A stretch of DNA of 18,746 bases, taken from assembly GCA_019844455.1 (NCBI GenBank), contig GCA_019844455.1_3938.2; one strand, written 5' to 3'. The translations under genes and the position numbers were made by a program. Source of the stretch: a phage. Position 1 is the first letter of the stretch. Every line of letters begins with the position of its first letter. This document shows, in pieces, positions 1 through 12,197 of the stretch. The notes below the pieces were generated by a model. It made no database searches. It was not told the origin of the DNA and saw only the letters and a list, made by a program, of their open reading frames with translations.

Positions 1-1
1 A

Positions 2-391
2 CGTGCAAACGAAATCCTGAAGCGTCTGTATGAAATGGGGTTTGCAAGCTCTAACGTGGTGTTTGGTGTAGGCTCTTACACTTACCAGTACATGACTCGT
101 GACACCTTTGCATTTGCTGTCAAAGCAACTCTTGCAAGCATTGGTGGCAAAGAGATTATGCTTGCAAAAGACCCTAAAACAGATAGTGGTGTTAAGAAAT
201 CTGCCTTTGGTGGTGTAGCACCTATGTGGGATGGTGAGAATTTGAAAGCTGTAGATGGCTATGGATTCCAGAGCTTTGCAGATGCACTTGAACATCCAGC
301 TTGTGCTTTACGTTTAGTCTTTAGCGACTCTGAGCAGTACGGTTACACAACTCTTGGTGATATTCGAAATAATATTGACAAGCAGCTTTAA
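2..391 (+). CDS. nadV: nicotinamide phosphoribosyltransferase (NadV/NAMPT-like), C-terminal fragment; 5' end lies outside the window
   Basis: Frame is open from the window edge to TAA at 389-391. The segment NVVFGVGSYTYQYMTRDTF...KDPKTDSGVKKSAFGG matches, from memory, the conserved NAMPT C-terminal pattern (FGxG...TRD...KDP..D...KK). Not searched. Confidence 0.7.
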   Translation, partial: RANEILKRLYEMGFASSNVVFGVGSYTYQYMTRDTFAFAVKATLASIGGKEIMLAKDPKTDSGVKKSAFGGVAPMWDGENLKAVDGYGFQSFADALEHPACALRLVFSDSEQYGYTTLGDIRNNIDKQL

Positions 392-405
392 AAGTATATG
401 ATAAG

Positions 406-428
406 AGGCTCCTACGGGAGCCTTTTTA
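406..428 (+). terminator. rho-independent terminator after nadV
   Basis: Perfect 7-bp stem aggctcc/ggagcct (406-412 / 417-423) with tacg loop, followed by a T-run (423-427). Confidence 0.6.
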
Positions 429-444
429 ATTTCTGGAGAAGATT

Positions 445-780
445 ATGAAAATCAAAGAGATGAACATCAACATTGTCTTAGAAGAACGTTGGGAGAATAT
501 TAAGAAACCTGAAGATGGTAAAAAGTTCCTTAACAAAATTTTAGTAGCAGCTAAAGAAGAACTGAATGGCAAGATTGCAGCAGCAGTCACAATAAAAGTT
601 TGTGTAAAAGGTCTTCCAGACAACCACCAATTTGCGCTTGACGAGTTTAAAAAAAGCTTCTACAATCCAAACAAACAGATGCTTGAAAGTAACTTTGCAG
701 TATCTACAAGTATCGTCCATGACAGAAGCTTTATCCTTTACAAAAACATGAGGGGTGAGTCATGCAAGCATATTGGGTAG
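445..780 (+). CDS. hypothetical protein (111 aa)
   Basis: ORF with GGAG 7 nt upstream of ATG 445; same strand and spacing as the flanking genes. No recognisable motif. Confidence 0.55.
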   Translation: MKIKEMNINIVLEERWENIKKPEDGKKFLNKILVAAKEELNGKIAAAVTIKVCVKGLPDNHQFALDEFKKSFYNPNKQMLESNFAVSTSIVHDRSFILYKNMRGESCKHIG

Positions 781-938
781 AAATTTTACTGTCACTTGGT
801 AGTGTAGCAGTCCTTGTTTATCTTCTTTGTAAGTACTTTGCAGAACACAAGAAGTGTGACTACTGTAACGGAGAAGGGTATACAAGAGCAGGTTGTTGCC
901 CTATGTGTGGTGGTTCTGGTAAAATGTTTAATAAGTAA
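762..938 (+). CDS. small membrane-anchored protein with two DnaJ-type CxxCxGxG zinc-finger repeats (58 aa; absent from the ORF track)
   Basis: Hand translation: MQAYWVEILLSLGSVAVLVYLLCKYFAEHKKCDYCNGEGYTRAGCCPMCGGSGKMFNK, stop TAA 936-938. Hydrophobic helix at residues 5-23, then CDYCNGEG and CPMCGGSG. Purine-rich stretch aggggtgag at 751-759 ends 2 nt before the ATG; overlaps the end of the 445-780 ORF by 19 nt. Confidence 0.5.
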   Translation: MQAYWVEILLSLGSVAVLVYLLCKYFAEHKKCDYCNGEGYTRAGCCPMCGGSGKMFNK

Positions 939-966
939 TTTAACAGTAAACTAAGAGGAAAGTATT

Positions 967-3333
967 ATGCGCATGGTAAATGACCACGCAGAAGTGATTA
1001 AGAGTTCAACTTCTTTAGAGACGTCTCAAGCACAGATTACAATGACACCTGAGATGTTCAGCCTTTTGAGTTCTGGTGTATATACCTTTAAAGAAAGGGC
1101 AGTGATTCGTGAACTGTCATGTAACGCAGTAGATGCTCAGAAAGAAGCTGGAAAAGAGAACATTCCGTTCCATGTGCATTTACCTACTCGTTTTGAGCCT
1201 TACTTTGAAGTTCGTGATTTTGGAACTGGATTGACTCATGATAAAGTTATGAGTTTGTACCTAAACTACGGGGCTTCTACGAAGAATGACTCTAATGACT
1301 ACATTGGTGCAATGGGTATCGGCTCAAAATCCCCATTTGCAATTGCTCAGTCATTCACAGTATCTAGCTATGTTGATGGTGTTGTTAATAAGTACTCTGT
1401 TTATCTTGAGAATGGTATCCCTCAAGTAACTAAGCTGACCACTAACCCAACAAAAGAACCTAATGGTTTAGCTGTACGTGTGGCAGTTGCTGACCACCGT
1501 ATCTCAAAGTTCTTTGAAGAAGCTGGAAATGTGTACTCATACTTCACTGTAAAACCAGAAAGTAATATTGAGTACGACGATGTATTAGCAGATATGAACG
1601 TCATTGCCCGTGAAGAAGGTGTTTATGATGCCATGATTCATAAGCAAAGCTGGCGTTCTAGTGGTAACAGGACAGAGTTTAATGTGGTGATGGGTAATAT
1701 TGCCTATCCAGTGAACATGGAAGCATTACTTGGTGATGATTTCTTCAAAGTCTTGCCAGAGTTTTTCCGTAGGAGCGTAGACCTTGTAAACATCTACATG
1801 CCTATTGGTTCAGTTGCTATAGCAGCTTCTCGTGAAGCATTGCAGATGAATGATACGACAAAAAATGTTATCATCGAGGCTACCAAAAAGATAACTGAAG
1901 CAATTACAAAGGATGTTATCAAGAAAGTTAATAGCCAACCTACACTCATGGATGCTGCACAGGCTTATGCAGAGCTACGTTTGAACTCACGAGAGATGTT
2001 TAATGCTGTGTGTCCAAAGCTAGAGTGGGGAGGCATTAAGCTTGATTCTCTGGAAGAAGAATTGTTAAACATTCGTCGTGGAATTATCTACGCAGAAGAC
2101 GGCTCAGTCATTTATGAACGTGACGGTAAAGGCAATATTAAGGTTGATAGGAACGGGAACAATATCCCTAAAGTAGATTATCTTTATGACCCAGTTGCTT
2201 ATGTCAAGTTCAACTCTTTAGAGAGTAAGATTCGTGCAACATCGCTTTCCTACACTCAAGAGGCAAGTATGTTCAATATCTTTGGCGCAATGCGTAAAAG
2301 CCAAATTGAACAGTTTTTGTTTGTTATAAATGACCGTCGCAATAAAAACGGTACTGAGAAGACTGTAGGACGCAATCAAATCTTGCGTGGTGCATGTCGA
2401 GACTATGCCAGTGAGTCAGGCCTGTTCCACAGATACAACGGTATTGTGTTTGTATTCTCGACTGAAAAAGAGTTAGACGACCTAATCAATCTACACAAAC
2501 TTGATAAAAGCTTGTTAAAGATTGTGAAGATGTCTGATAAGGAACACCATTATCAGCGTAAAGAAGCTGTAAGAGGTGTTGTAAAACTCTGGAAAGCTGT
2601 TCCAGCAGAAGGTGTAGCTTCCTATAAAGAGGTGTCAGAAGACTTAGACACAATTGAAGAACCTCAACTTTATATCAAGGCAGTAGGTGATACTGTTGAT
2701 GGCGAATGTTTTTGCTCATCTCCAGAAGATGTAGCTAAGTCAGTTGCCAATGTCATTGGGAAGACAGTCTATGTTTTCCGAAAAGCAAATTGGAAAAAGA
2801 TACCAGAAGACTGGATTGAGGTAGATGAGAAGCTCTTGAACGACAGCTTAACTGATGTTCACTGGATTAATCATAACAGATATATGACACGTATCTATAT
2901 GAATGGCGTCCTTGACCTCACAAGCAGTTGGATTATTGCCAGAAACTTTACGTTCAATAACAGGAAGATTTCTCGTGGCTATTGCTATTCACGAGACACA
3001 AACAAAACTATCTTCTTAGAAGGCAATGAAGATGCTGTTGAGGCAATGTTTGGTAAAATCCAATACGTTGCTGCACCGTTTGCATACGCTTACACTATTA
3101 GTAGATTGCAAACTTTGAAAGAATGCCTTGACAATGATACAAAGTTGTACAAGAAAATTAAGAAAGCTGGTGACCGCATGGTCATTAAGGTGACAAACTA
3201 CCTTTCAAAAAGAAAACAAGAAAACTTCTTGCTTTCTCATTTAGATTGGAATAAAGTGTCACCTATTGAAGTGAGTAAGTTCTTAGGCTTTGATGTGAAG
3301 TGTGTTCCAGAAGGGACTACAATTTACGATTAA
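967..3333 (+). CDS. rIIA: rIIA-like protein (membrane-integrity / lysis-inhibition protector; N-terminal GHKL-like ATPase region)
   Basis: 788-aa ORF with RBS aagagga upstream. The N-terminal blocks AVIRELSCNAVDA and DYIGAMGIGSKSPFAIAQSFTVSSY parallel T4 rIIA (recalled as AVVRELITNMIDAH and DFIGGFGLGSKSPF...SITSY). Followed directly by an rIIB homolog. Confidence 0.9.
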   Translation: MRMVNDHAEVIKSSTSLETSQAQITMTPEMFSLLSSGVYTFKERAVIRELSCNAVDAQKEAGKENIPFHVHLPTRFEPYFEVRDFGTGLTHDKVMSLYLNYGASTKNDSNDYIGAMGIGSKSPFAIAQSFTVSSYVDGVVNKYSVYLENGIPQVTKLTTNPTKEPNGLAVRVAVADHRISKFFEEAGNVYSYFTVKPESNIEYDDVLADMNVIAREEGVYDAMIHKQSWRSSGNRTEFNVVMGNIAYPVNMEALLGDDFFKVLPEFFRRSVDLVNIYMPIGSVAIAASREALQMNDTTKNVIIEATKKITEAITKDVIKKVNSQPTLMDAAQAYAELRLNSREMFNAVCPKLEWGGIKLDSLEEELLNIRRGIIYAEDGSVIYERDGKGNIKVDRNGNNIPKVDYLYDPVAYVKFNSLESKIRATSLSYTQEASMFNIFGAMRKSQIEQFLFVINDRRNKNGTEKTVGRNQILRGACRDYASESGLFHRYNGIVFVFSTEKELDDLINLHKLDKSLLKIVKMSDKEHHYQRKEAVRGVVKLWKAVPAEGVASYKEVSEDLDTIEEPQLYIKAVGDTVDGECFCSSPEDVAKSVANVIGKTVYVFRKANWKKIPEDWIEVDEKLLNDSLTDVHWINHNRYMTRIYMNGVLDLTSSWIIARNFTFNNRKISRGYCYSRDTNKTIFLEGNEDAVEAMFGKIQYVAAPFAYAYTISRLQTLKECLDNDTKLYKKIKKAGDRMVIKVTNYLSKRKQENFLLSHLDWNKVSPIEVSKFLGFDVKCVPEGTTIYD

Positions 3334-3412: not shown

Positions 3413-4522
3413 ATGACTACTAAAACTAAAGCACAGATTGACGCAGAAATTTACAAACTGGTTAAAGAAGGTAAGCTGACTAAAACAGCTATTGCACAGA
3501 AATTTAATACTTCAACCCGTTCAGTCGGTCGTGCTGTAGAGCGTCACGAAGCAACCTTAAAAGGGAATAAGAAGGCAACTTCTACACCAGCTACGAAGAC
3601 TTTGAAACAAGTTGCTAAGACCTTTAAGAAGAAAGCTGACAAACCAGTTGAAAAGGTCGTTAAAGATGTTGTACAGAAAGCTCCAGTAAATAAACTGCAC
3701 GAAGCTATGCAGAAAGATGACAAGATTGAGTACATGATTACTGGTGATTCTGTAATTATGACTTATGGTTCAGAATCTGAAATTGTTGAGTCTACTCATC
3801 CGAACTATCAAGAGATTGTAGTTCATGTTGTGAAAGGTGAGTTCAAGAAAGCATTTGAACTGATGAACATTCGTAAGTCTATCGAAAACTTCACTCAGGG
3901 TGCTATCACAATCAAAGGCGACAAGCTATTCTACGGTGCTGTTGAGATGCGTTCTACTCTGGTTGACCGTATTCTTCACATGATGAAAACTGGTGATAAA
4001 GGTTTTGAACGACTTGTAATGTTCTTCGAAAAACTGATGGAAAACCCATCTAAAGATTCTGTAGAACAACTTTGGGGATTTGTATCTCACCTTGATGTTG
4101 AAATTGATGAAGAAGGTTACATCATTGGTTGGAAGAAAGTCTCTACTCGTGAAGGCAAGCTGGTTGACTCTCACACCTACAAAGTGCCTAATGATTTGGG
4201 TAACATTGTAGAAATGCCACGTTGGATGGTTGATAATAACCGTAACGTAACTTGCTCTCAAGGTCTTCATGTTGGTGCTTGGGATTATGTTCGTTGCTTC
4301 TCAGGTGATACAATCCTGAAGGTTCGCGTACATCCACGAGATGTTGTATCTGTTCCAACTGATTACAACGATATGAAGATGCGTTCCTCTCGTTATGAAG
4401 TTGCAGCAATCGTTGATAATCAACGTAAAGTGCTGGAAGCATGGGACGGTAAGACTGAAGCTTTGCATGTCATCGTTGGCACTGCTGGTGAACTCATCTC
4501 TCAACGTAAACGTGAAATCTAA
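3413..4522 (+). CDS. rIIB: rIIB-like protein
   Basis: 369-aa ORF, RBS gagag 7 nt upstream. The C-terminal two-thirds parallels T4 rIIB as recalled: ...MRSTLVDRIL..., ...ENPSKDSVEQLWGFV..., ...CSQGLHVGAW..., KVRVHPRDVVSVPTDYNDMKMRSSRYEV (T4: KVKVHPRDVVSIPIDYNDAKMR). Confidence 0.9.
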   Translation: MTTKTKAQIDAEIYKLVKEGKLTKTAIAQKFNTSTRSVGRAVERHEATLKGNKKATSTPATKTLKQVAKTFKKKADKPVEKVVKDVVQKAPVNKLHEAMQKDDKIEYMITGDSVIMTYGSESEIVESTHPNYQEIVVHVVKGEFKKAFELMNIRKSIENFTQGAITIKGDKLFYGAVEMRSTLVDRILHMMKTGDKGFERLVMFFEKLMENPSKDSVEQLWGFVSHLDVEIDEEGYIIGWKKVSTREGKLVDSHTYKVPNDLGNIVEMPRWMVDNNRNVTCSQGLHVGAWDYVRCFSGDTILKVRVHPRDVVSVPTDYNDMKMRSSRYEVAAIVDNQRKVLEAWDGKTEALHVIVGTAGELISQRKREI

Positions 4523-4539
4523 TAAGTAATTTCTTAAAA

Positions 4540-4562
4540 GGCTGCTTCGGCGGCCTTTTTTA
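4540..4562 (+). terminator. rho-independent terminator after rIIB
   Basis: Stem ggctgc/gcggcc (one G-U wobble) with ttcg tetraloop, followed by tttttta. Confidence 0.7.
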
Positions 4563-4622: not shown

Positions 4623-5171
4623 ATGAAGAAATTGATTCTAGGTTTGTGCTTAATGTTTACAGCACACTTATCTTATGCAGTTGACTGCCCAGAGCTATCA
4701 ATTAGCCAAAAAGTGAACATGTTAAAAGCTTACCAGTATGGTGAGAATAACATGGGTAAAGGTTGGGGTATCACTCTAGCAGCTATAGCCTTACAAGAGT
4801 CAGAGTTAGGTCTGAAGGTAGAAAATAAAAAGACCCATGACTATGGTATCTTCCAGAATCACTTGAAGACTGTTGTAAAGCGTAACAAAATTAGTCCTAA
4901 TGTTGCTAAAAAGAAACTCTTAAAAGATTTTGACTATGCCGCAAAAGAAACACATAAAGAGCTTGAGTTTTGGACGAAGGTACACGGTCACCCAAAGTCA
5001 AAGAAGACTTTACAAAAAGTTTTAGCATCATATAATGCTGGGTATTCGTACAGAATCCCTAAAGCTAAGAAATACTCTCAAGATGTCTATAACAATATGA
5101 AAGTTATCGCTCAATGTGAATTTGCAACAAACATTTCTAAGGTAAATCATGAAAAAATTAAGAAAGTCTGA
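4623..5171 (+). CDS. secreted lytic-transglycosylase-like protein (SLT-domain-like, N-terminal signal peptide)
   Basis: RBS aggag. N-terminus MKKLILGLCLMFTAHLSYA looks like a Sec signal peptide. Blocks IALQESELG, DYGIFQ and ASYNAGYS resemble the SLT family ES / GLxQ / AYNxG motifs (from memory). Confidence 0.55.
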   Translation: MKKLILGLCLMFTAHLSYAVDCPELSISQKVNMLKAYQYGENNMGKGWGITLAAIALQESELGLKVENKKTHDYGIFQNHLKTVVKRNKISPNVAKKKLLKDFDYAAKETHKELEFWTKVHGHPKSKKTLQKVLASYNAGYSYRIPKAKKYSQDVYNNMKVIAQCEFATNISKVNHEKIKKV

Positions 5172-5844
5172 TGAAGTCCTGTGCCACGCTTATGACTTGC
5201 ATCCTCATGAGTTATGTCTTGATTCCTGTGTATGGACTCCAGAACAGTGCAGGGATTTTGAAGACACTGCAAGAGAAGTTGTATGTTCACTTGAAGAGTT
5301 CCACACATCAGAACCCATTGTGAACGTTGTGGACAAAGAGACTGGACAAACTATAGGTGTAAGGCGTGATAGTTTAGTCATAGTCAATAAAGACCTTGTA
5401 GAAAAAGGTAACCTCATCTTAGCAGATATTGATGGCGTTCTTACAAATTTTAATCACGAAGATTGCTCAACGGAATTGACTGATGGGTCATTCTCACAGT
5501 ACACTAATCTTCTTGATTCTGTAAGAGCAAAACCAACATATGTTTTCAACATTATTGATGCAATTGCAAATCATGCAGTAGTTGGACTCTTGACAGCAAG
5601 AGGTGAATCTCAGAGAATACCTACTGAGATGTTTTTAAGGCACAATATAGAGCACGATTACTTGCTTTTTATGCGTGGTTTTGGAACTAACTCTATAAGT
5701 GCAGAAAGTTTGAAAGTGAGGATGATTCAGTCTTGCATTCTTCCTTACTTTAATATAGTATGCTTTATAGAAGATACAGAGAATAATGTTCAGAAGGTAA
5801 ACAGAATCCTTCCACACATTAAAACTATGTTAGTTAAACATTGA
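5149..5844 (+). CDS. HAD-superfamily phosphatase-like protein with a Cys/His-rich N-terminal extension
   Basis: LILADIDGVL fits HAD motif I (hhhDxDGV), GLLTARGES fits motif II, and CFIEDTENN fits the acidic motif IV. The 90-aa N-terminal region is Cys/His-rich. RBS aagg present; overlaps the previous gene by 23 nt. Confidence 0.55.
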   Translation: MKKLRKSDEVLCHAYDLHPHELCLDSCVWTPEQCRDFEDTAREVVCSLEEFHTSEPIVNVVDKETGQTIGVRRDSLVIVNKDLVEKGNLILADIDGVLTNFNHEDCSTELTDGSFSQYTNLLDSVRAKPTYVFNIIDAIANHAVVGLLTARGESQRIPTEMFLRHNIEHDYLLFMRGFGTNSISAESLKVRMIQSCILPYFNIVCFIEDTENNVQKVNRILPHIKTMLVKH

Positions 5845-5855
5845 GAGAAGAACTT

Positions 5856-6320
5856 ATGAACAATATCATTACGGTAGCACTGGACGATACGGCAAACAAA
5901 TCTGAAGTAGTTCGTAAAATGATTCAAGGTAACTTTGAAGGTAAAATTTTCCGTGCTGTTAATGTAAAAGCTGATGGTAGCATTCGCGAATATCGTGCAT
6001 TGTTGAACGTTAAGAAGCACGTAAAAGGTGTTGGTTCAACGACTGCACACAAAGAAAACCTGATGACTATCTATGATATGGGTAAGGCTTCAGAGTTAGG
6101 TGCTGAAGGTATCGTTAAAGAAGGTGCTCCGTATCGCTCTTTCAATCTGGAAACTACTCTTATGCTTTCCTTTACAAGTGGTTCCAAAACAATCACTTAT
6201 CTCTTTACTGATGCTGCAACGGTATCTGCTATTAAGGATAGCACTGTCAAAGCTGGCGTAGTTGCTGCTGCAAAAGCTTCTTCGATGGCTGCAAATATCC
6301 TTGCTAAAGTCCTCGGTTAA
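5856..6320 (+). CDS. hypothetical protein (154 aa; Ala-rich C-terminus)
   Basis: The track starts this ORF at a TTG (5841). The in-frame ATG at 5856 sits 6 nt after RBS gagagaag, so it is the more likely start. No recognisable motif. Confidence 0.55.
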   Translation: MNNIITVALDDTANKSEVVRKMIQGNFEGKIFRAVNVKADGSIREYRALLNVKKHVKGVGSTTAHKENLMTIYDMGKASELGAEGIVKEGAPYRSFNLETTLMLSFTSGSKTITYLFTDAATVSAIKDSTVKAGVVAAAKASSMAANILAKVLG

Positions 6321-6331
6321 GGTTAAGATAC

Positions 6332-6353
6332 AGGCTCCTTCGGGAGCCTTTTT
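6332..6353 (+). terminator. rho-independent terminator
   Basis: Same stem as at 406 (aggctcc/ggagcct, here with a ttcg loop), followed by ttttt; sits 12 nt after the stop at 6320. Confidence 0.65.
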
Positions 6354-6372
6354 CATTTCAGGAGATTGTTAA

Positions 6373-6720
6373 ATGACATTTAAAGAGTTCTGTCAAGCTA
6401 CTTTCATAATTGTTTTCTTAGTTGGGGCAGGTGTCTGGGGAGGATACTCTTACAGAGACTACCAAGTTGCTGAAACTGAGCTAAACAACCAGAAGCTAAT
6501 AAGTGTTGCTAAAGATGCTTATCAGGAAGGATTAGTTACACTGAGCACCAATTACAAAAATGATTTGAAAGACGTGCTTGCTAAGAATAAGCACACAAAA
6601 GAGGTACTGACATATGAAAAGACTAAGCCAGAGTTTTATAATGTTTGTGTTACTGATAACTATGTCAGGGTGTTCAACGAACAAAGTGAGCAATACATTC
6701 AAAAACTCCCAAGTAAGTGA
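6373..6720 (+). CDS. Rz-like i-spanin candidate (type II inner-membrane protein)
   Basis: N-terminal helix ATFIIVFLVGAGVWGGYSY followed by YRDYQ, a charged helical region, and a tail ...NVCVTD...FNEQSEQYIQ. This resembles lambda Rz as recalled (YRDNAI after the helix, ...KAVCQ..., ...KYINEQCR). The next gene starts out of frame inside its 3' end. Confidence 0.55.
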   Translation: MTFKEFCQATFIIVFLVGAGVWGGYSYRDYQVAETELNNQKLISVAKDAYQEGLVTLSTNYKNDLKDVLAKNKHTKEVLTYEKTKPEFYNVCVTDNYVRVFNEQSEQYIQKLPSK

Positions 6721-6880
6721 AAGTGATAAGTACACTCAGGAAGATGTAAGATATGCTGTCAAAGGTAACACTGGTGCAGACTTATCAGAAGCCCTTGAGT
6801 TTTATCGTGACGGGTACTATCAGTGTACTATGAAAGCTAACAACTTGATTGATATGATTTTATTAGGGAATAAGCAGTAA
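6614..6880 (+). CDS. Rz1-like o-spanin candidate (outer-membrane lipoprotein)
   Basis: MKRLSQSFIMFVLLITMSGC has the shape of a lipoprotein signal with a lipobox-like MSGC. RBS aaagagg 9 nt upstream. Overlaps the 3' end of the i-spanin candidate by 107 nt in another frame, the classic overlapped spanin layout. At 88 aa it is long for an Rz1 and lacks a proline-rich stretch. Confidence 0.45.
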   Translation: MKRLSQSFIMFVLLITMSGCSTNKVSNTFKNSQVSESDKYTQEDVRYAVKGNTGADLSEALEFYRDGYYQCTMKANNLIDMILLGNKQ

Positions 6881-7152
6881 TGACACAAAGTAATGATGAA
6901 ACTTTCTACACAGAAGGTTACTTACTTCTACCGAGACCGAAAGATACTTACATGAGGATTGATTTCTTACCTACGATTATGGATAATGTAATGTGTCACA
7001 TCTTTATGCAAGGTATCACAGCACAGCTTAAGCATGTTGGTAAAGAGTGCAAAATAAAGGTTGACACTCATCCAGAAATCAAAGAGAATCACTACACATG
7101 GTTCCTACCAGACTCTAAAGAAATCTTAGCAGTTCTTAAAACGAGGAAATGA
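6880..7152 (+). CDS. hypothetical protein (90 aa)
   Basis: ATG overlaps the upstream stop (TAATG), suggesting translational coupling. No recognisable motif. Confidence 0.5.
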   Translation: MTQSNDETFYTEGYLLLPRPKDTYMRIDFLPTIMDNVMCHIFMQGITAQLKHVGKECKIKVDTHPEIKENHYTWFLPDSKEILAVLKTRK

Positions 7153-7154
7153 TT

Positions 7155-7463
7155 ATGCAATTCCAGCCAACAAATCGTGGATTTTCTTATGCAGAATTTA
7201 AAGATGCTAAAGGGGAAATTTGTACTTTACAAGAGAGTTCATCATACGAACCATGTATCTGGTTAGGTGCTAAAGAGGTCTCTGTTCAGTACCTAGATAA
7301 TGGCTGGAAAACACTTGATATCCCAGCATTAGTTGGTAAAGATTTTGTAGGTAATCAAAGAATGAAGCTCAATCAAGAACAGGTAAAAGAGTTGTTGCCG
7401 TACCTTCAATACTTTGCTGAAAATGGTGAATTACCAACAGAGGAACTTACAAATGCAGATTAA
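7155..7463 (+). CDS. hypothetical protein (about 102 aa)
   Basis: The track gives 7149. The ATG at 7155 is better spaced (7 nt) from RBS gagg at 7144-7147 and lies just after the upstream stop (7150-7152). Confidence 0.5.
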   Translation: MQFQPTNRGFSYAEFKDAKGEICTLQESSSYEPCIWLGAKEVSVQYLDNGWKTLDIPALVGKDFVGNQRMKLNQEQVKELLPYLQYFAENGELPTEELTNAD

Positions 7464-7779
7464 TGGAAGAGACTTTGTAGCCGTTTACTACGAGAAAGGT
7501 AAAGAAGTTGGCGTAGCGCAAGTATCTTATGGCAATGGTGGGTGGCTATATGGAACAATCGCAGTAGTTGGAACGAGAAGTGATACAAAAACTTTTAAAG
7601 ATTGTGTTGACCTTCTTGAAGAATCCATTCAGAATCATTGGTGTCTGATATGGATGACTGACAACGAAGTGATAGAACGCTTCAAAAAGATTGATATCAA
7701 CATTGATAGTATTGAGCATGTTGATTTATATGAGCTAACTGAGAAGGTAAACTATGAGAGTAATTCTAGCCAGAGATAA
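7453..7779 (+). CDS. hypothetical protein (about 108 aa)
   Basis: The track gives 7414. The internal ATG at 7453 follows RBS agagga and overlaps the upstream stop (7461-7463). Confidence 0.5.
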   Translation: MQINGRDFVAVYYEKGKEVGVAQVSYGNGGWLYGTIAVVGTRSDTKTFKDCVDLLEESIQNHWCLIWMTDNEVIERFKKIDINIDSIEHVDLYELTEKVNYESNSSQR

Positions 7780-7981
7780 AAAGACACGGAAACTCATCCG
7801 GTCAGCAGTATTCATTGGAAGAAATGAAGTCATCCCGTTTACAGCAAACGATGTGATAGCCTACAGGAAAAACTTAGTGTTTAGTGATTGCTTGCGTGGC
7901 TTCATCTCCCAACCGTTGGAAGACTTTAAAAGCCGTTGTGGTAAAGGTATCATCATTCAAGAGGCAATTATCAATGGCTGA
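7754..7981 (+). CDS. hypothetical protein (75 aa)
   Basis: RBS gagaagg upstream of ATG 7754; overlaps its neighbours in the style of a coupled operon. Confidence 0.45.
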   Translation: MRVILARDKKTRKLIRSAVFIGRNEVIPFTANDVIAYRKNLVFSDCLRGFISQPLEDFKSRCGKGIIIQEAIING

Positions 7982-8174
7982 CTTCTGCAAAGACTGTTCT
8001 ATCGAAATGTTCGGACGTGATACAGGTGACTTAAAAGGTCTTATCACTGAAGATGACTTTAAAGCTGGTTATGCAATGCCAGTAATCTGTGAAGGTTGTG
8101 GGTGCATCTGGGTAGACCACGAAGGACAACGTGTAAAACCTTCAGAAGACAAAGAATCTTGGGAGAGATGTTAA
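7974..8174 (+). CDS. small Cys-rich putative zinc-binding protein (about 66 aa)
   Basis: The track gives 7884. The in-frame ATG at 7974 follows RBS aagagg (7958-7963). Product MADFCKDCSIEMF...VICEGCGCIW carries CxxC and CxxCxC motifs. Confidence 0.45.
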   Translation: MADFCKDCSIEMFGRDTGDLKGLITEDDFKAGYAMPVICEGCGCIWVDHEGQRVKPSEDKESWERC

Positions 8175-8960
8175 ATGGGTATTGTAAAAATAATTAATGG
8201 TGATATCTTTGCCGCATTTGATAAAGGTAAGTTTGACATCATCGGTCACGGTTGCAACTGTATGAATTTAATGGGTGCAGGTATCGCTGACAAGATTTCT
8301 AAACTTTACCCAAAAGCATATGAGACCGATACAGAAGTTTATCTGTATGCAGGTGGTATAGGACACAAACCCTGTGAAAATTTACTGGGTAATTTCTCTG
8401 TAGCACGTTTAAAACAAGGTCGTATAGCTAACCTTTACACTCAGCTTAAGACTGGTAAAGATGCCCGATACAGTGCTTTAGAGTCATCTTTGAAACAGCT
8501 TAACAGATACTGTGAAGTTAATCAGTTGAAGAAGGTTGGTTTACCTATGATTGGTGCAGGTATCGGTGGACTTGAACCTCAAGCCGTCACAGTTATCATT
8601 AATCAGGTGATGAAGAGTGTAGATGTTTATCTGTATGTCTACGAAGGAGAGATGTACCACAAGTTACGCTCAGGTTGGAATAACTACTGTGAACCAGAAT
8701 ACTTTGCAGGTGTAGTAACGTTCAAAGATGATACAGTTACCCTCTTCAGACGAAGAAAAGGTAAGATACATCAAAGTAACCCTCCGGTTGAGAAGATGTC
8801 TCTAAGTAACGCTCTAGTTACCCACCTGTCGAAGAGCAATCACAGGATAGCCGTAACATTTGGCAGTGATGCAGATACATATATTTATGCAAGAACTGAT
8901 GAGGATATCGAGACGGTCTTCTCTTCACCAGAAGTTACCTTCTTAGACGCAAAGAACTAA
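8175..8960 (+). CDS. macro-domain (ADP-ribose binding/processing) protein with a C-terminal extension of about 100 aa
   Basis: IINGDIF...DIIGHGCNCMNLMGAGIADKI parallels the macrodomain core (recalled from YmdB as VQGDIT...VNAANpSLmGGGGVDGAIH). Later LPMIGAGIGG parallels FPAISTGVYG, and YLYVYE parallels YFVCYD. RBS gggagag upstream. Confidence 0.65.
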   Translation: MGIVKIINGDIFAAFDKGKFDIIGHGCNCMNLMGAGIADKISKLYPKAYETDTEVYLYAGGIGHKPCENLLGNFSVARLKQGRIANLYTQLKTGKDARYSALESSLKQLNRYCEVNQLKKVGLPMIGAGIGGLEPQAVTVIINQVMKSVDVYLYVYEGEMYHKLRSGWNNYCEPEYFAGVVTFKDDTVTLFRRRKGKIHQSNPPVEKMSLSNALVTHLSKSNHRIAVTFGSDADTYIYARTDEDIETVFSSPEVTFLDAKN

Positions 8961-8990
8961 GAAACTTTGTATAATATTCACAATAGACTA

Positions 8991-9034
8991 AGCCTTCCTT
9001 ATCTGGTAAATTTTTCAGGTAAGGAGGGCTTTTT
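8991..9034 (+). terminator. possible terminator (long-loop hairpin plus T-run)
   Basis: agccttcctta (8991-9001) pairs with taaggagggct (9020-9030) with one mismatch and an 18-nt loop, then ttttt. Weaker than the other terminators. Confidence 0.3.
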
Positions 9035-11509: not shown

Positions 11510-11835
11510 TGACTGGTATCACTTCAATCATTGCCATTTTCGCGCTATATAAGGCATATAAAGCCTATAATCTAGCAAATAAGGCAATCACACAGCAGGT
11601 TAGCAATAGCCTTGTAAAAAGCTTTCTAGGGCGTCTCAGTGATGAGCAAATAAAGCGGTTAGAAATGAGCTTCAGATTCAAAGCGAAAACCTATCAGATA
11701 AGTGACATCTTCAAGGATGATTTCCAGTTAGTCGATGATTATAATTCTCTGATAAATGCTTTAAATATCAGTGACTTAAAAGACTACTACGCTGTAATTG
11801 TTCAAGAGTTGAGCAAACGAAAACAAAACTGTTGA
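11503..11835 (+). CDS. hypothetical protein with N-terminal hydrophobic segment (110 aa)
   Basis: ATG overlaps the upstream stop (ATGTTAATG); RBS agagga upstream. N-terminus GITSIIAIFALY is hydrophobic. The stop TGA (11833-11835) sits inside the TTGACA of the next module. Confidence 0.5.
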   Translation: MLMTGITSIIAIFALYKAYKAYNLANKAITQQVSNSLVKSFLGRLSDEQIKRLEMSFRFKAKTYQISDIFKDDFQLVDDYNSLINALNISDLKDYYAVIVQELSKRKQNC

Positions 11836-11924
11836 CACTGATTTTTAGATAGATTAAATTACACATCAACGGGGAGGGAACAACCTTCCCACTAAATAAA
11901 GTCCTTAAACTAGGAGATTCTAAA
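11832..11924 (+). promoter_or_regulatory. intergenic module type B, copy 1 (sigma70-like promoter, 5'-UTR hairpin, shared RBS region)
   Basis: TTGACA 11832-11837, 17-nt spacer, TAAATT 11855-11860, hairpin gggaa-caacc-ttccc (11876-11890), then actaaataaagtccttaaactaggagattctaaaATG. Confidence 0.55.
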
Positions 11925-12197
11925 ATGTATACTACTAACAATGGCCTCACTTTGAACGTCACACTACGTCACTATGTAGATGGTGTCATGCACTTTGAAG
12001 ATTTACAAGCTGAACAACATATCTTAGATTGGCAAGTCGCAGGACTCCAAAAAACTGCTACGGGATACGGTAAAAAGATTCCAACTAGTTGGAAAGTTCA
12101 CTATGAAGGACGTTTGCGCAGAATTTATCAAGATGTGCAAAGCAATAGCGCATCGAGTTACATTATAGTAAAAGGTGAAAAACTGCATTTAGTATAA
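11925..12197 (+). CDS. hypothetical protein (90 aa)
   Basis: ORF with the shared RBS region. No recognisable motif. Confidence 0.5.
   Translation: MYTTNNGLTLNVTLRHYVDGVMHFEDLQAEQHILDWQVAGLQKTATGYGKKIPTSWKVHYEGRLRRIYQDVQSNSASSYIIVKGEKLHLV

Follow-up and report, generated by a model that had tools for sequence, protein, structure and literature searches.

Two overlapping genes in an 18,746-nucleotide stretch of phage DNA (the whole of which is referred to here as the window) very probably encode a two-component spanin of the phage, one subunit each, as a gene pair of the overlapped type. Using the functional class of Summer 2007 and Kongari 2018, we find that the upstream gene product is a small protein with a single N-terminal transmembrane domain (the i-spanin), and that the gene overlapping it encodes a protein with a lipobox that lacks aspartate at position +2 (the o-spanin), each with at least one cysteine in its predicted periplasmic part. 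Support for this assignment comes from the gene structure, the transmembrane helix and the lipobox, from conservation and family identity, and from the lysis cassettes in which homologues are found. The pair is already known: it is p014/p015 of Felix O1, of the 'JH2' spanin family, and its detached position has also been published.

The window belongs to a Felixounavirus. With Escherichia coli O157 typing phage 1 (NC_041979) it shares 99.8% identity, and with most of 254 Felix O1-like phages ~94%; it corresponds to the reverse complement of ~23.9-43.0 kb of NC_041979, with an indel upstream of rIIA. Approximately 350 bp that lie upstream of rIIA in typing phage 1 are missing from the window (1-967), and the small ORFs in this part differ in number and length. 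The coordinates of the features are collected in Table 1.

Table 1. The spanin gene pair, its signals and the surrounding genes, in window coordinates.
Feature	Coordinates	Strand	Description
rIIA	967-3333		first in gene order
rIIB	3413-4522		after rIIA
Signal-peptide SLT-like protein	4623-5171	+	182 aa; after rIIB
'Polynucleotide kinase'	5149-5844	+	after SLT-like gene
Conserved hypothetical gene	5841-6320		directly before spanin pair
Terminator-like hairpin	6332..6349	+	AGGCTCC-TTCG-GGAGCCT + TTTTT; ends 10 nt before AGGAG of i-spanin
Shine-Dalgarno AGGAG of i-spanin	6360..6364	+	8 nt before ATG; from sequence
i-spanin gene	6373..6720	+	115 aa; ORF, hydropathy, PHROG 1152 match, Felix O1 p014 identity
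Shine-Dalgarno GAGG of o-spanin	6601..6604	+	9 nt before ATG, inside i-spanin coding sequence
Dual-coding overlap	6614..6720	+	107 nt; i-spanin C-terminal 35 codons = o-spanin signal peptide + N-terminus
o-spanin gene	6614..6880	+	88 aa; ORF, lipobox, PHROG 4180/2425/456, 10-phage alignment
Macro-domain protein	8175-8960	+	261 aa; after spanin pair and several small genes

The i-spanin and o-spanin proteins

The initial annotation had described the upstream gene product as N-terminally anchored, and our analysis agrees, placing one N-terminal transmembrane segment in an ORF with exactly the boundaries first given. This segment, ATFIIVFLVGAGVWGGYSY, is the sole hydrophobic stretch of the 115-aa protein; it spans approximately residues 9-27 (nt 6397-6453), reaches a 17-residue Kyte-Doolittle maximum of 2.0, and is conserved as a helix in all 10 homologues compared below. 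The charges that flank it are balanced, with K4/E5 before and R27/D28 after, and do not clearly set an N-in/C-out orientation; we infer the type II (N-in, C-out) topology from the spanins of lambda and T4. The part that would lie in the periplasm carries a conserved C-terminal motif, EKTKPxFxNxCxTDxYVRxFNE, and a single cysteine, Cys92, that is invariant in the 10-phage alignment. PHROG 1152, named 'Rz-like spanin', matches the protein over its full length (E = 1e-41). The AGGAG ribosome-binding site that precedes the gene is likewise marked in the supplement of Kongari 2018 (PMC6139136) and is also annotated in the Mushroom record.

The absence of a periplasmic coiled coil had been put forward as grounds for refuting the spanin assignment, which is too strict, as many accepted i-spanins, including the identical protein of Felix O1, have no coiled coil by Pepcoil. 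For that identical protein, Jpred gives 66% helix and Pepcoil no coiled coil, and more than 120 other accepted i-spanins are likewise without one (PMC6139136 and its supplement). Our own heptad test (L, I, V or M at positions a/d) was discarded, as it did not flag lambda Rz itself. Single-sequence AlphaFold2 models of the two proteins are all-helical for the i-spanin (pLDDT 47) and helical for the o-spanin (pLDDT 49), values that are too low for a fold search or for claims about secondary structure.

The description of the downstream product as lipoprotein-like also holds. The 88-aa protein begins MKRLSQSFIMFVLLIT-MSGC-S, with a basic N-terminus and a hydrophobic core forming a predicted signal peptide that ends in the lipobox MSGC (nt 6662-6673). 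The pattern used in the spanin census, [ILMFTV][^REKD][GAS]C, matches at Cys20, and the residue at +2 is serine and not aspartate, as in lipoproteins of the outer-membrane sorting type. The predicted mature protein of 69 aa contains no proline and one further cysteine, the invariant Cys71, and has the C-terminal motif LEFYRDxYxxC...N(G/N)LID. It matches PHROG 4180 (E = 2e-47) and PHROG 2425, neither of which has a name; the match to PHROG 456, 'Rz-like spanin', is weak (E = 1e-4). Its ribosome-binding site is annotated at the corresponding place in Mushroom and Maleficent, and the GenBank record of Kuravirus Paul gives a LipoP SpII call for the homologous o-spanin.

The dual-coding overlap

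The two genes had been described as an overlapped pair, the second starting in another frame within the first, and this arrangement was reproduced to the nucleotide, with the o-spanin frame at +1 relative to that of the i-spanin. An overlap of the same length, 107 nt, is also listed for Felix01 and wV8 (PMC6139136). In three of three comparisons with close relatives the overlap is the most conserved DNA stretch of the pair: its identity is 95.3% against 92.9% and 77.7% for the i-spanin-only and o-spanin-only parts in the first, 85.0% against 78.8% and 80.3% in the second, and 90.7% against 83.0% and 84.7% in the third. The higher conservation of the overlap fits selection on two reading frames. 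Searches with tblastn found the i-spanin in 361 phage records and the o-spanin in 365, the latter with at least 80% of its 88 aa covered; given these numbers and an overlap that is more conserved than the unique parts, the pair lies far beyond what chance would produce.

These observations also bear on a reading in which the 115-aa gene alone is real, the 88-aa frame (or the N-terminal extension of it) having arisen by chance. Such a reading could appeal to RefSeq NC_041979, in which the gene starts at an internal methionine and has no signal peptide, and to records that annotate the i-spanin alone (PMC8300805 among the sources). Nevertheless, the full-length frame, with its basic N-terminus, hydrophobic core, lipobox cysteine and own ribosome-binding site, occurs in 10/10 of the phages compared, down to ~27-33% identity, and the tblastn records and the conservation of the overlap argue in the same direction, so that a chance origin of the second gene is extremely unlikely.

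The non-overlapping part of the o-spanin gene (6721-6877) is a divergent allele, with 77.7% DNA identity to Mushroom as compared to 92.9% for the i-spanin-only part. At the protein level the allele is ~83-86% identical to most Felixounavirus copies, and the o-spanin is 83-89% identical to the other Felix O1-type copies that were compared (Mushroom, EcSzw_1 and wV8); phage records with at least 99% identity by tblastn number only 3 for the o-spanin as compared to 61 for the i-spanin. Judged from these identities, 6721-6877 looks like a small recombination patch.

Identity with the Felix O1 spanins

In the census of Kongari et al. 2018, p014 of Felix01 is listed as an overlapped i-spanin, the coordinates of the pair being 5330-5678 and 5571-5841 (PMC6139136), and the 115-aa protein of the window is 100% identical to the p014 sequence in the supplement of that paper. 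Its overlapped 'JH2' families, 'JH2 (15)' for i-spanins and 'JH2 (11)' for o-spanins, contain Felix01, wV8, Mushroom, Moogle, UAB_Phi87, FO1a and others, with PhiEco32 in the i-spanin family (PMC6139136). The p014/p015 pair of Felix O1, whose i-spanin corresponds to PHROG 1152, agrees with the window pair in its ribosome-binding site, in the 107-nt overlap and in its place in the genome, where it comes after rIIA-rIIB and the 'polynucleotide kinase' gene. Nothing of substance distinguishes the Felix O1-type pairs from that of the window, in which the non-overlapping part of the o-spanin is somewhat divergent.

Many GenBank records, for example those of Mushroom, Maleficent and Paul, annotate the two genes as i-spanin and o-spanin, in all cases bioinformatically. 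Other records differ in their treatment of the second gene. RefSeq NC_041979 starts it, as gp087, at the internal Met17 (window position 6662, MSGC...), which removes the signal peptide, and calls the product hypothetical; EcSzw_1 also starts the gene late. The o-spanin homologue is unannotated in PM-CJR and SP069, and in the KP13-27 record no gene of this group has a name. The practical value of the present analysis is small: records with the internal-methionine start or an unnamed o-spanin gene, RefSeq NC_041979 among them, could be corrected. Beyond correct annotation it has little importance, as the pair, its overlap and its detachment from the holin and endolysin genes have already been catalogued.

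Conservation among distant homologues

Both genes were extracted from 10 phages: two of Felixounavirus (the window and Mushroom), members of Mooglevirus, Suspvirus and Kolesnikvirus, a Hafnia ounavirine, Kuravirus Paul, Gorganvirus PM-CJR, Nonanavirus SP069 and Klebsiella phage KP13-27. These represent at least 8 lineages of myo-, podo- and siphoviruses, and the overlapped arrangement is kept in all of them, with an N-terminal helix in the first protein, a lipobox cysteine at residue 20-26 of the second, and 107-164 nt shared between the two genes. The most distant i-spanins are 23-24% identical to that of the window, and the most distant o-spanin 27%. In the 10-phage alignments the invariant residues are G24, E82, K83, N90, C92, Y97, N102 and E103 of the i-spanin, and C20, G54, C71, N76 and L78 of the o-spanin, which identifies the two C-terminal regions, together with one cysteine in each, as the conserved parts of the pair. 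The conserved C-terminal regions are expected to be where the spanin subunits meet.

The pairs of phiEco32/Kuravirus, Kolesnikvirus, Gorganvirus and the 9NA-like phages are true homologues of the window pair (23-35% identity for the i-spanin and 27-44% for the o-spanin), with which they have in common the C-terminal motifs, the invariant cysteines and the overlapped layout. They differ in where the pair is located. In Gorganvirus, the 9NA-like phages and KP13-27 it closes a classical lysis cassette, whereas in Ounavirinae and Kuravirus it is detached from the cassette. Specifically, among homologues at 24-33% identity, the pair of Proteus phage PM-CJR follows a holin gene, a hypothetical gene and a peptidoglycan hydrolase gene, and that of Salmonella phage SP069 follows an annotated endolysin gene; Klebsiella phage KP13-27 has the same layout as these two, its genes being unannotated.

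Comparison with the lambda and T4 spanins

The pair had been called Rz/Rz1-like, a term that stands for function and architecture but not for sequence, as neither lambda Rz nor T4 PseT.3/PseT.2 proved related in profile comparisons. A profile comparison of the i-spanin with lambda Rz, which had been suggested as a homology check, returned an hhalign probability of 0.2%. BLASTP aligns the two proteins at 20% identity with an E-value of 0.002, marginal for a single-pair comparison, and the match consists of the helix, the YRD sequence and a cysteine. A YRD motif after the helix had been taken as a sign of likeness to Rz; it is indeed present, as in lambda Rz, but it is not conserved in the alignment of the protein's own family, and hence is not diagnostic. 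BLASTP produced no alignment of T4 PseT.3/PseT.2 with the window proteins, and hhalign against the T4 proteins aligned 5 residues for the i-spanin and the lipobox region alone for the o-spanin, which indicates no relationship. Judged by these comparisons, 'Rz/Rz1-like' is a functional and architectural label and not a statement of descent.

As in lambda Rz/Rz1, the window pair would combine a type II inner-membrane protein with an outer-membrane lipoprotein whose gene uses the +1 frame of the same DNA. Periplasmic cysteines are present in both pairs, and both i-spanins have YRD after the helix. The periplasmic domain of the lambda i-spanin is a coiled coil, whereas Pepcoil predicts none for the Felix O1 protein. 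In contrast, the rz1 product comes from a fully embedded gene and is proline-rich and unstructured, whereas the window o-spanin gene is overlapped and the mature part of its product is proline-free. The lambda genes follow S and R in a cassette, whereas the window pair does not adjoin a holin or endolysin gene. In this last respect it resembles T4 PseT.3/PseT.2, which is also a two-component spanin unlinked to its holin (t) and endolysin (e) genes. The T4 o-spanin is structured and proline-poor, and that of the window is likewise proline-poor and presumably structured; in both phages the spanin genes lie near a polynucleotide kinase/phosphatase gene (beside pseT in T4). However, the T4 genes are separated and those of the window overlapped, and the T4 i-spanin has no periplasmic cysteine while its o-spanin has two, as compared to one invariant cysteine in each protein of the window pair.

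Genome position and the other lysis genes

The initial annotation had recognized no holin nearby, and we concur: apart from the spanin pair, plausible membrane proteins in the window are limited to those encoded by 762-938 (58 aa, zinc-finger) and by the signal-peptide gene that follows rIIB. A holin candidate is present in NC_041979 at 11559-12116, in the tRNA cluster, as a homologue of the gene called holin by the CPT annotators in Mushroom. The endolysin gene of NC_041979 (19881-20345) is on the strand opposite to the spanin genes (35766-36273) and ~15.4 kb from them, outside the window. Linkage to holin and endolysin genes, a usual but not a defining feature of spanin genes, is thus absent from NC_041979 and present in PM-CJR and SP069. 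Felix O1-like lysis genes have been described as scattered, as in T4 (PMC4319497), and likewise in the genome note on Meda (PMC6486253); the note on Mushroom by CPT authors calls the lysis system 'T4-like' (PMC4392139), and one comparative paper labels the spanin module 'late or lysis'.

A search for another spanin pair near the endolysin gene, a check proposed at the outset, yielded none, as the endolysin neighbours in NC_041979 belong to unrelated PHROGs, and a six-frame lipobox scan of the whole NC_041979 genome found no second pair. Only one other credible lipoprotein emerged from it, encoded at 66876-67112 between the DNA polymerase and ligase genes (MWKSVIVLGVIFLAGC..., 78 aa, PHROG 902, function unknown). 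It was rejected as a second o-spanin, its upstream neighbour having no transmembrane helix, and is a candidate exclusion-type lipoprotein.

A terminator-like hairpin just upstream of the i-spanin gene forms the 5' edge of a gene block that reaches to the next such hairpin, at 8990-9031. The region near the rII genes is split into blocks by three hairpins of this kind (4536-4559, 6332-6349 and 8990-9031, on the + strand, two of the three with TTCG loops), although their number is not above chance in a simple scan (3 found as compared to 2.3 expected). The spanin genes come first in the block 6373-8960, and the hairpin and the ribosome-binding site are too close together for a promoter between them. 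In the AYO145A record a terminator is annotated under the match, and in Kuravirus Paul one is annotated directly upstream of the i-spanin gene. The spanin pair of Ounavirinae and Kuravirus has thus left the lysis cassette for a hairpin-bounded, putatively non-late block, which in the window ends with the macro-domain gene.

This position is what lends some weight to a different reading, in which the two genes are an unrelated pair of inner-membrane protein and lipoprotein that acts early, in superinfection exclusion or receptor masking (cf. T5 Llp and Cor-type lipoproteins), and not in lysis. The block adjoins rIIA/rIIB, the phosphatase-like 'polynucleotide kinase' and the macro-domain gene, and not late or lysis genes; the homologous pair of Kuravirus Paul is also located among early or middle genes; and the literature that we searched contains neither experimental proof of spanin activity nor any experimental test (complementation, knockout or lipid labelling) for the Felix O1-type family. 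On the other hand, in PM-CJR and SP069 homologues of both proteins are found at the classical place of a spanin pair, behind an annotated holin and/or cell-wall hydrolase, and the layout of KP13-27 is the same; obligatory pairing and overlapped architecture are kept across myo-, podo- and siphoviruses, which argues against an unrelated pair. Detachment itself is compatible with function, as T4 pseT.3/pseT.2, which lie apart from t and e, complement amber mutants of lambda Rz/Rz1 (PMC6139136). The genome of NC_041979 also offers no other spanin candidate. Gram-negative phages generally need a spanin. The superinfection-exclusion function that the initial annotation had held out as its alternative is therefore not favoured, given the match to PHROG 1152, the identity to Felix O1 p014, the existing annotations and the homologues that end holin-endolysin cassettes, and we consider an early-acting pair of this kind very unlikely.

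Proposed mechanism

The spanin reading suggests a sequence of events in which the topology, the lipidation and Lol sorting, the assembly of the complex with its disulfides, the fusion of membranes and the timing are extrapolated from the spanins of lambda and T4 (PMC6139136). The N-terminal helix would hold the 115-aa protein in the inner membrane, with a mostly helical domain of ~88 residues in the periplasm. The 88-aa protein would be exported, lipid-modified on Cys20 after cleavage by signal peptidase II, and sorted by the Lol pathway to the outer membrane, because serine and not aspartate is present at +2. The conserved C-terminal regions of the i- and o-spanin would then bind each other, such that the complex spans the periplasm and threads the peptidoglycan mesh, and Cys92 of the i-spanin and Cys71 of the o-spanin would probably form stabilizing intermolecular disulfides. 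The complex is predicted to be inert while the wall is intact, so that a non-late block remote from the holin and endolysin genes would be a workable place for the spanin genes. Once the holin released the endolysin and the wall was degraded, the spanin complexes would be free to disrupt the outer membrane, presumably by fusing it with the inner membrane, as proposed for lambda Rz/Rz1.

It is conceivable, if very improbable, that the relocated pair is made early and has an additional pre-lysis role at the envelope, for example in the exclusion of superinfecting phage; in a related suggestion, the single invariant cysteine of each subunit would join i-spanin to o-spanin in a heterotypic disulfide, where lambda and T4 have homotypic links.

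Neighbouring genes

The cell-wall enzyme that had been noted 1.2 kb upstream of the spanin pair is the protein encoded by 4623-5171; it has a signal peptide and SLT-like motifs, but its match to the Pfam SLT domain is below threshold (E = 9e-4). The signal peptide, MKKLILGLCLMFTAHLSYA, appears cleavable, with VD following the predicted cleavage site, and the lytic-transglycosylase motifs are ALQESELG, GIFQ and SYNAGYSY. A sequence search of the PDB with this protein found nothing. Its annotations conflict: Mushroom has 'RegB-like endoribonuclease', Hafnia phage SarahDanielle has 'lytic transglycosylase domain', and PHROG 600 is of unknown function. We rejected it as the phage endolysin, as a separate lysozyme-type endolysin exists (PHROG 7, E = 7e-58). 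It is thus a putative exported murein enzyme that adjoins rIIB and is distinct from the endolysin.

The product of 762-938 (+ strand), just upstream of rIIA, has an N-terminal hydrophobic helix and two CxxCxGxG motifs of the DnaJ zinc-finger type, and matches PHROG 3931 (function unknown). The 'polynucleotide kinase' weakly resembles the HAD phosphatase half of T4 Pnkp, with DIDGVL in place of DVDGTL (BLASTP E = 0.1). Finally, the 261-aa protein at the end of the spanin block is annotated as 'phosphatase' and contains a Macro (ADP-ribose/Appr-1-p) domain with a Pfam match above the cut-off (E = 2.4e-7); the homologous o-spanin gene of Kuravirus Paul likewise has a macro-domain gene directly after it.
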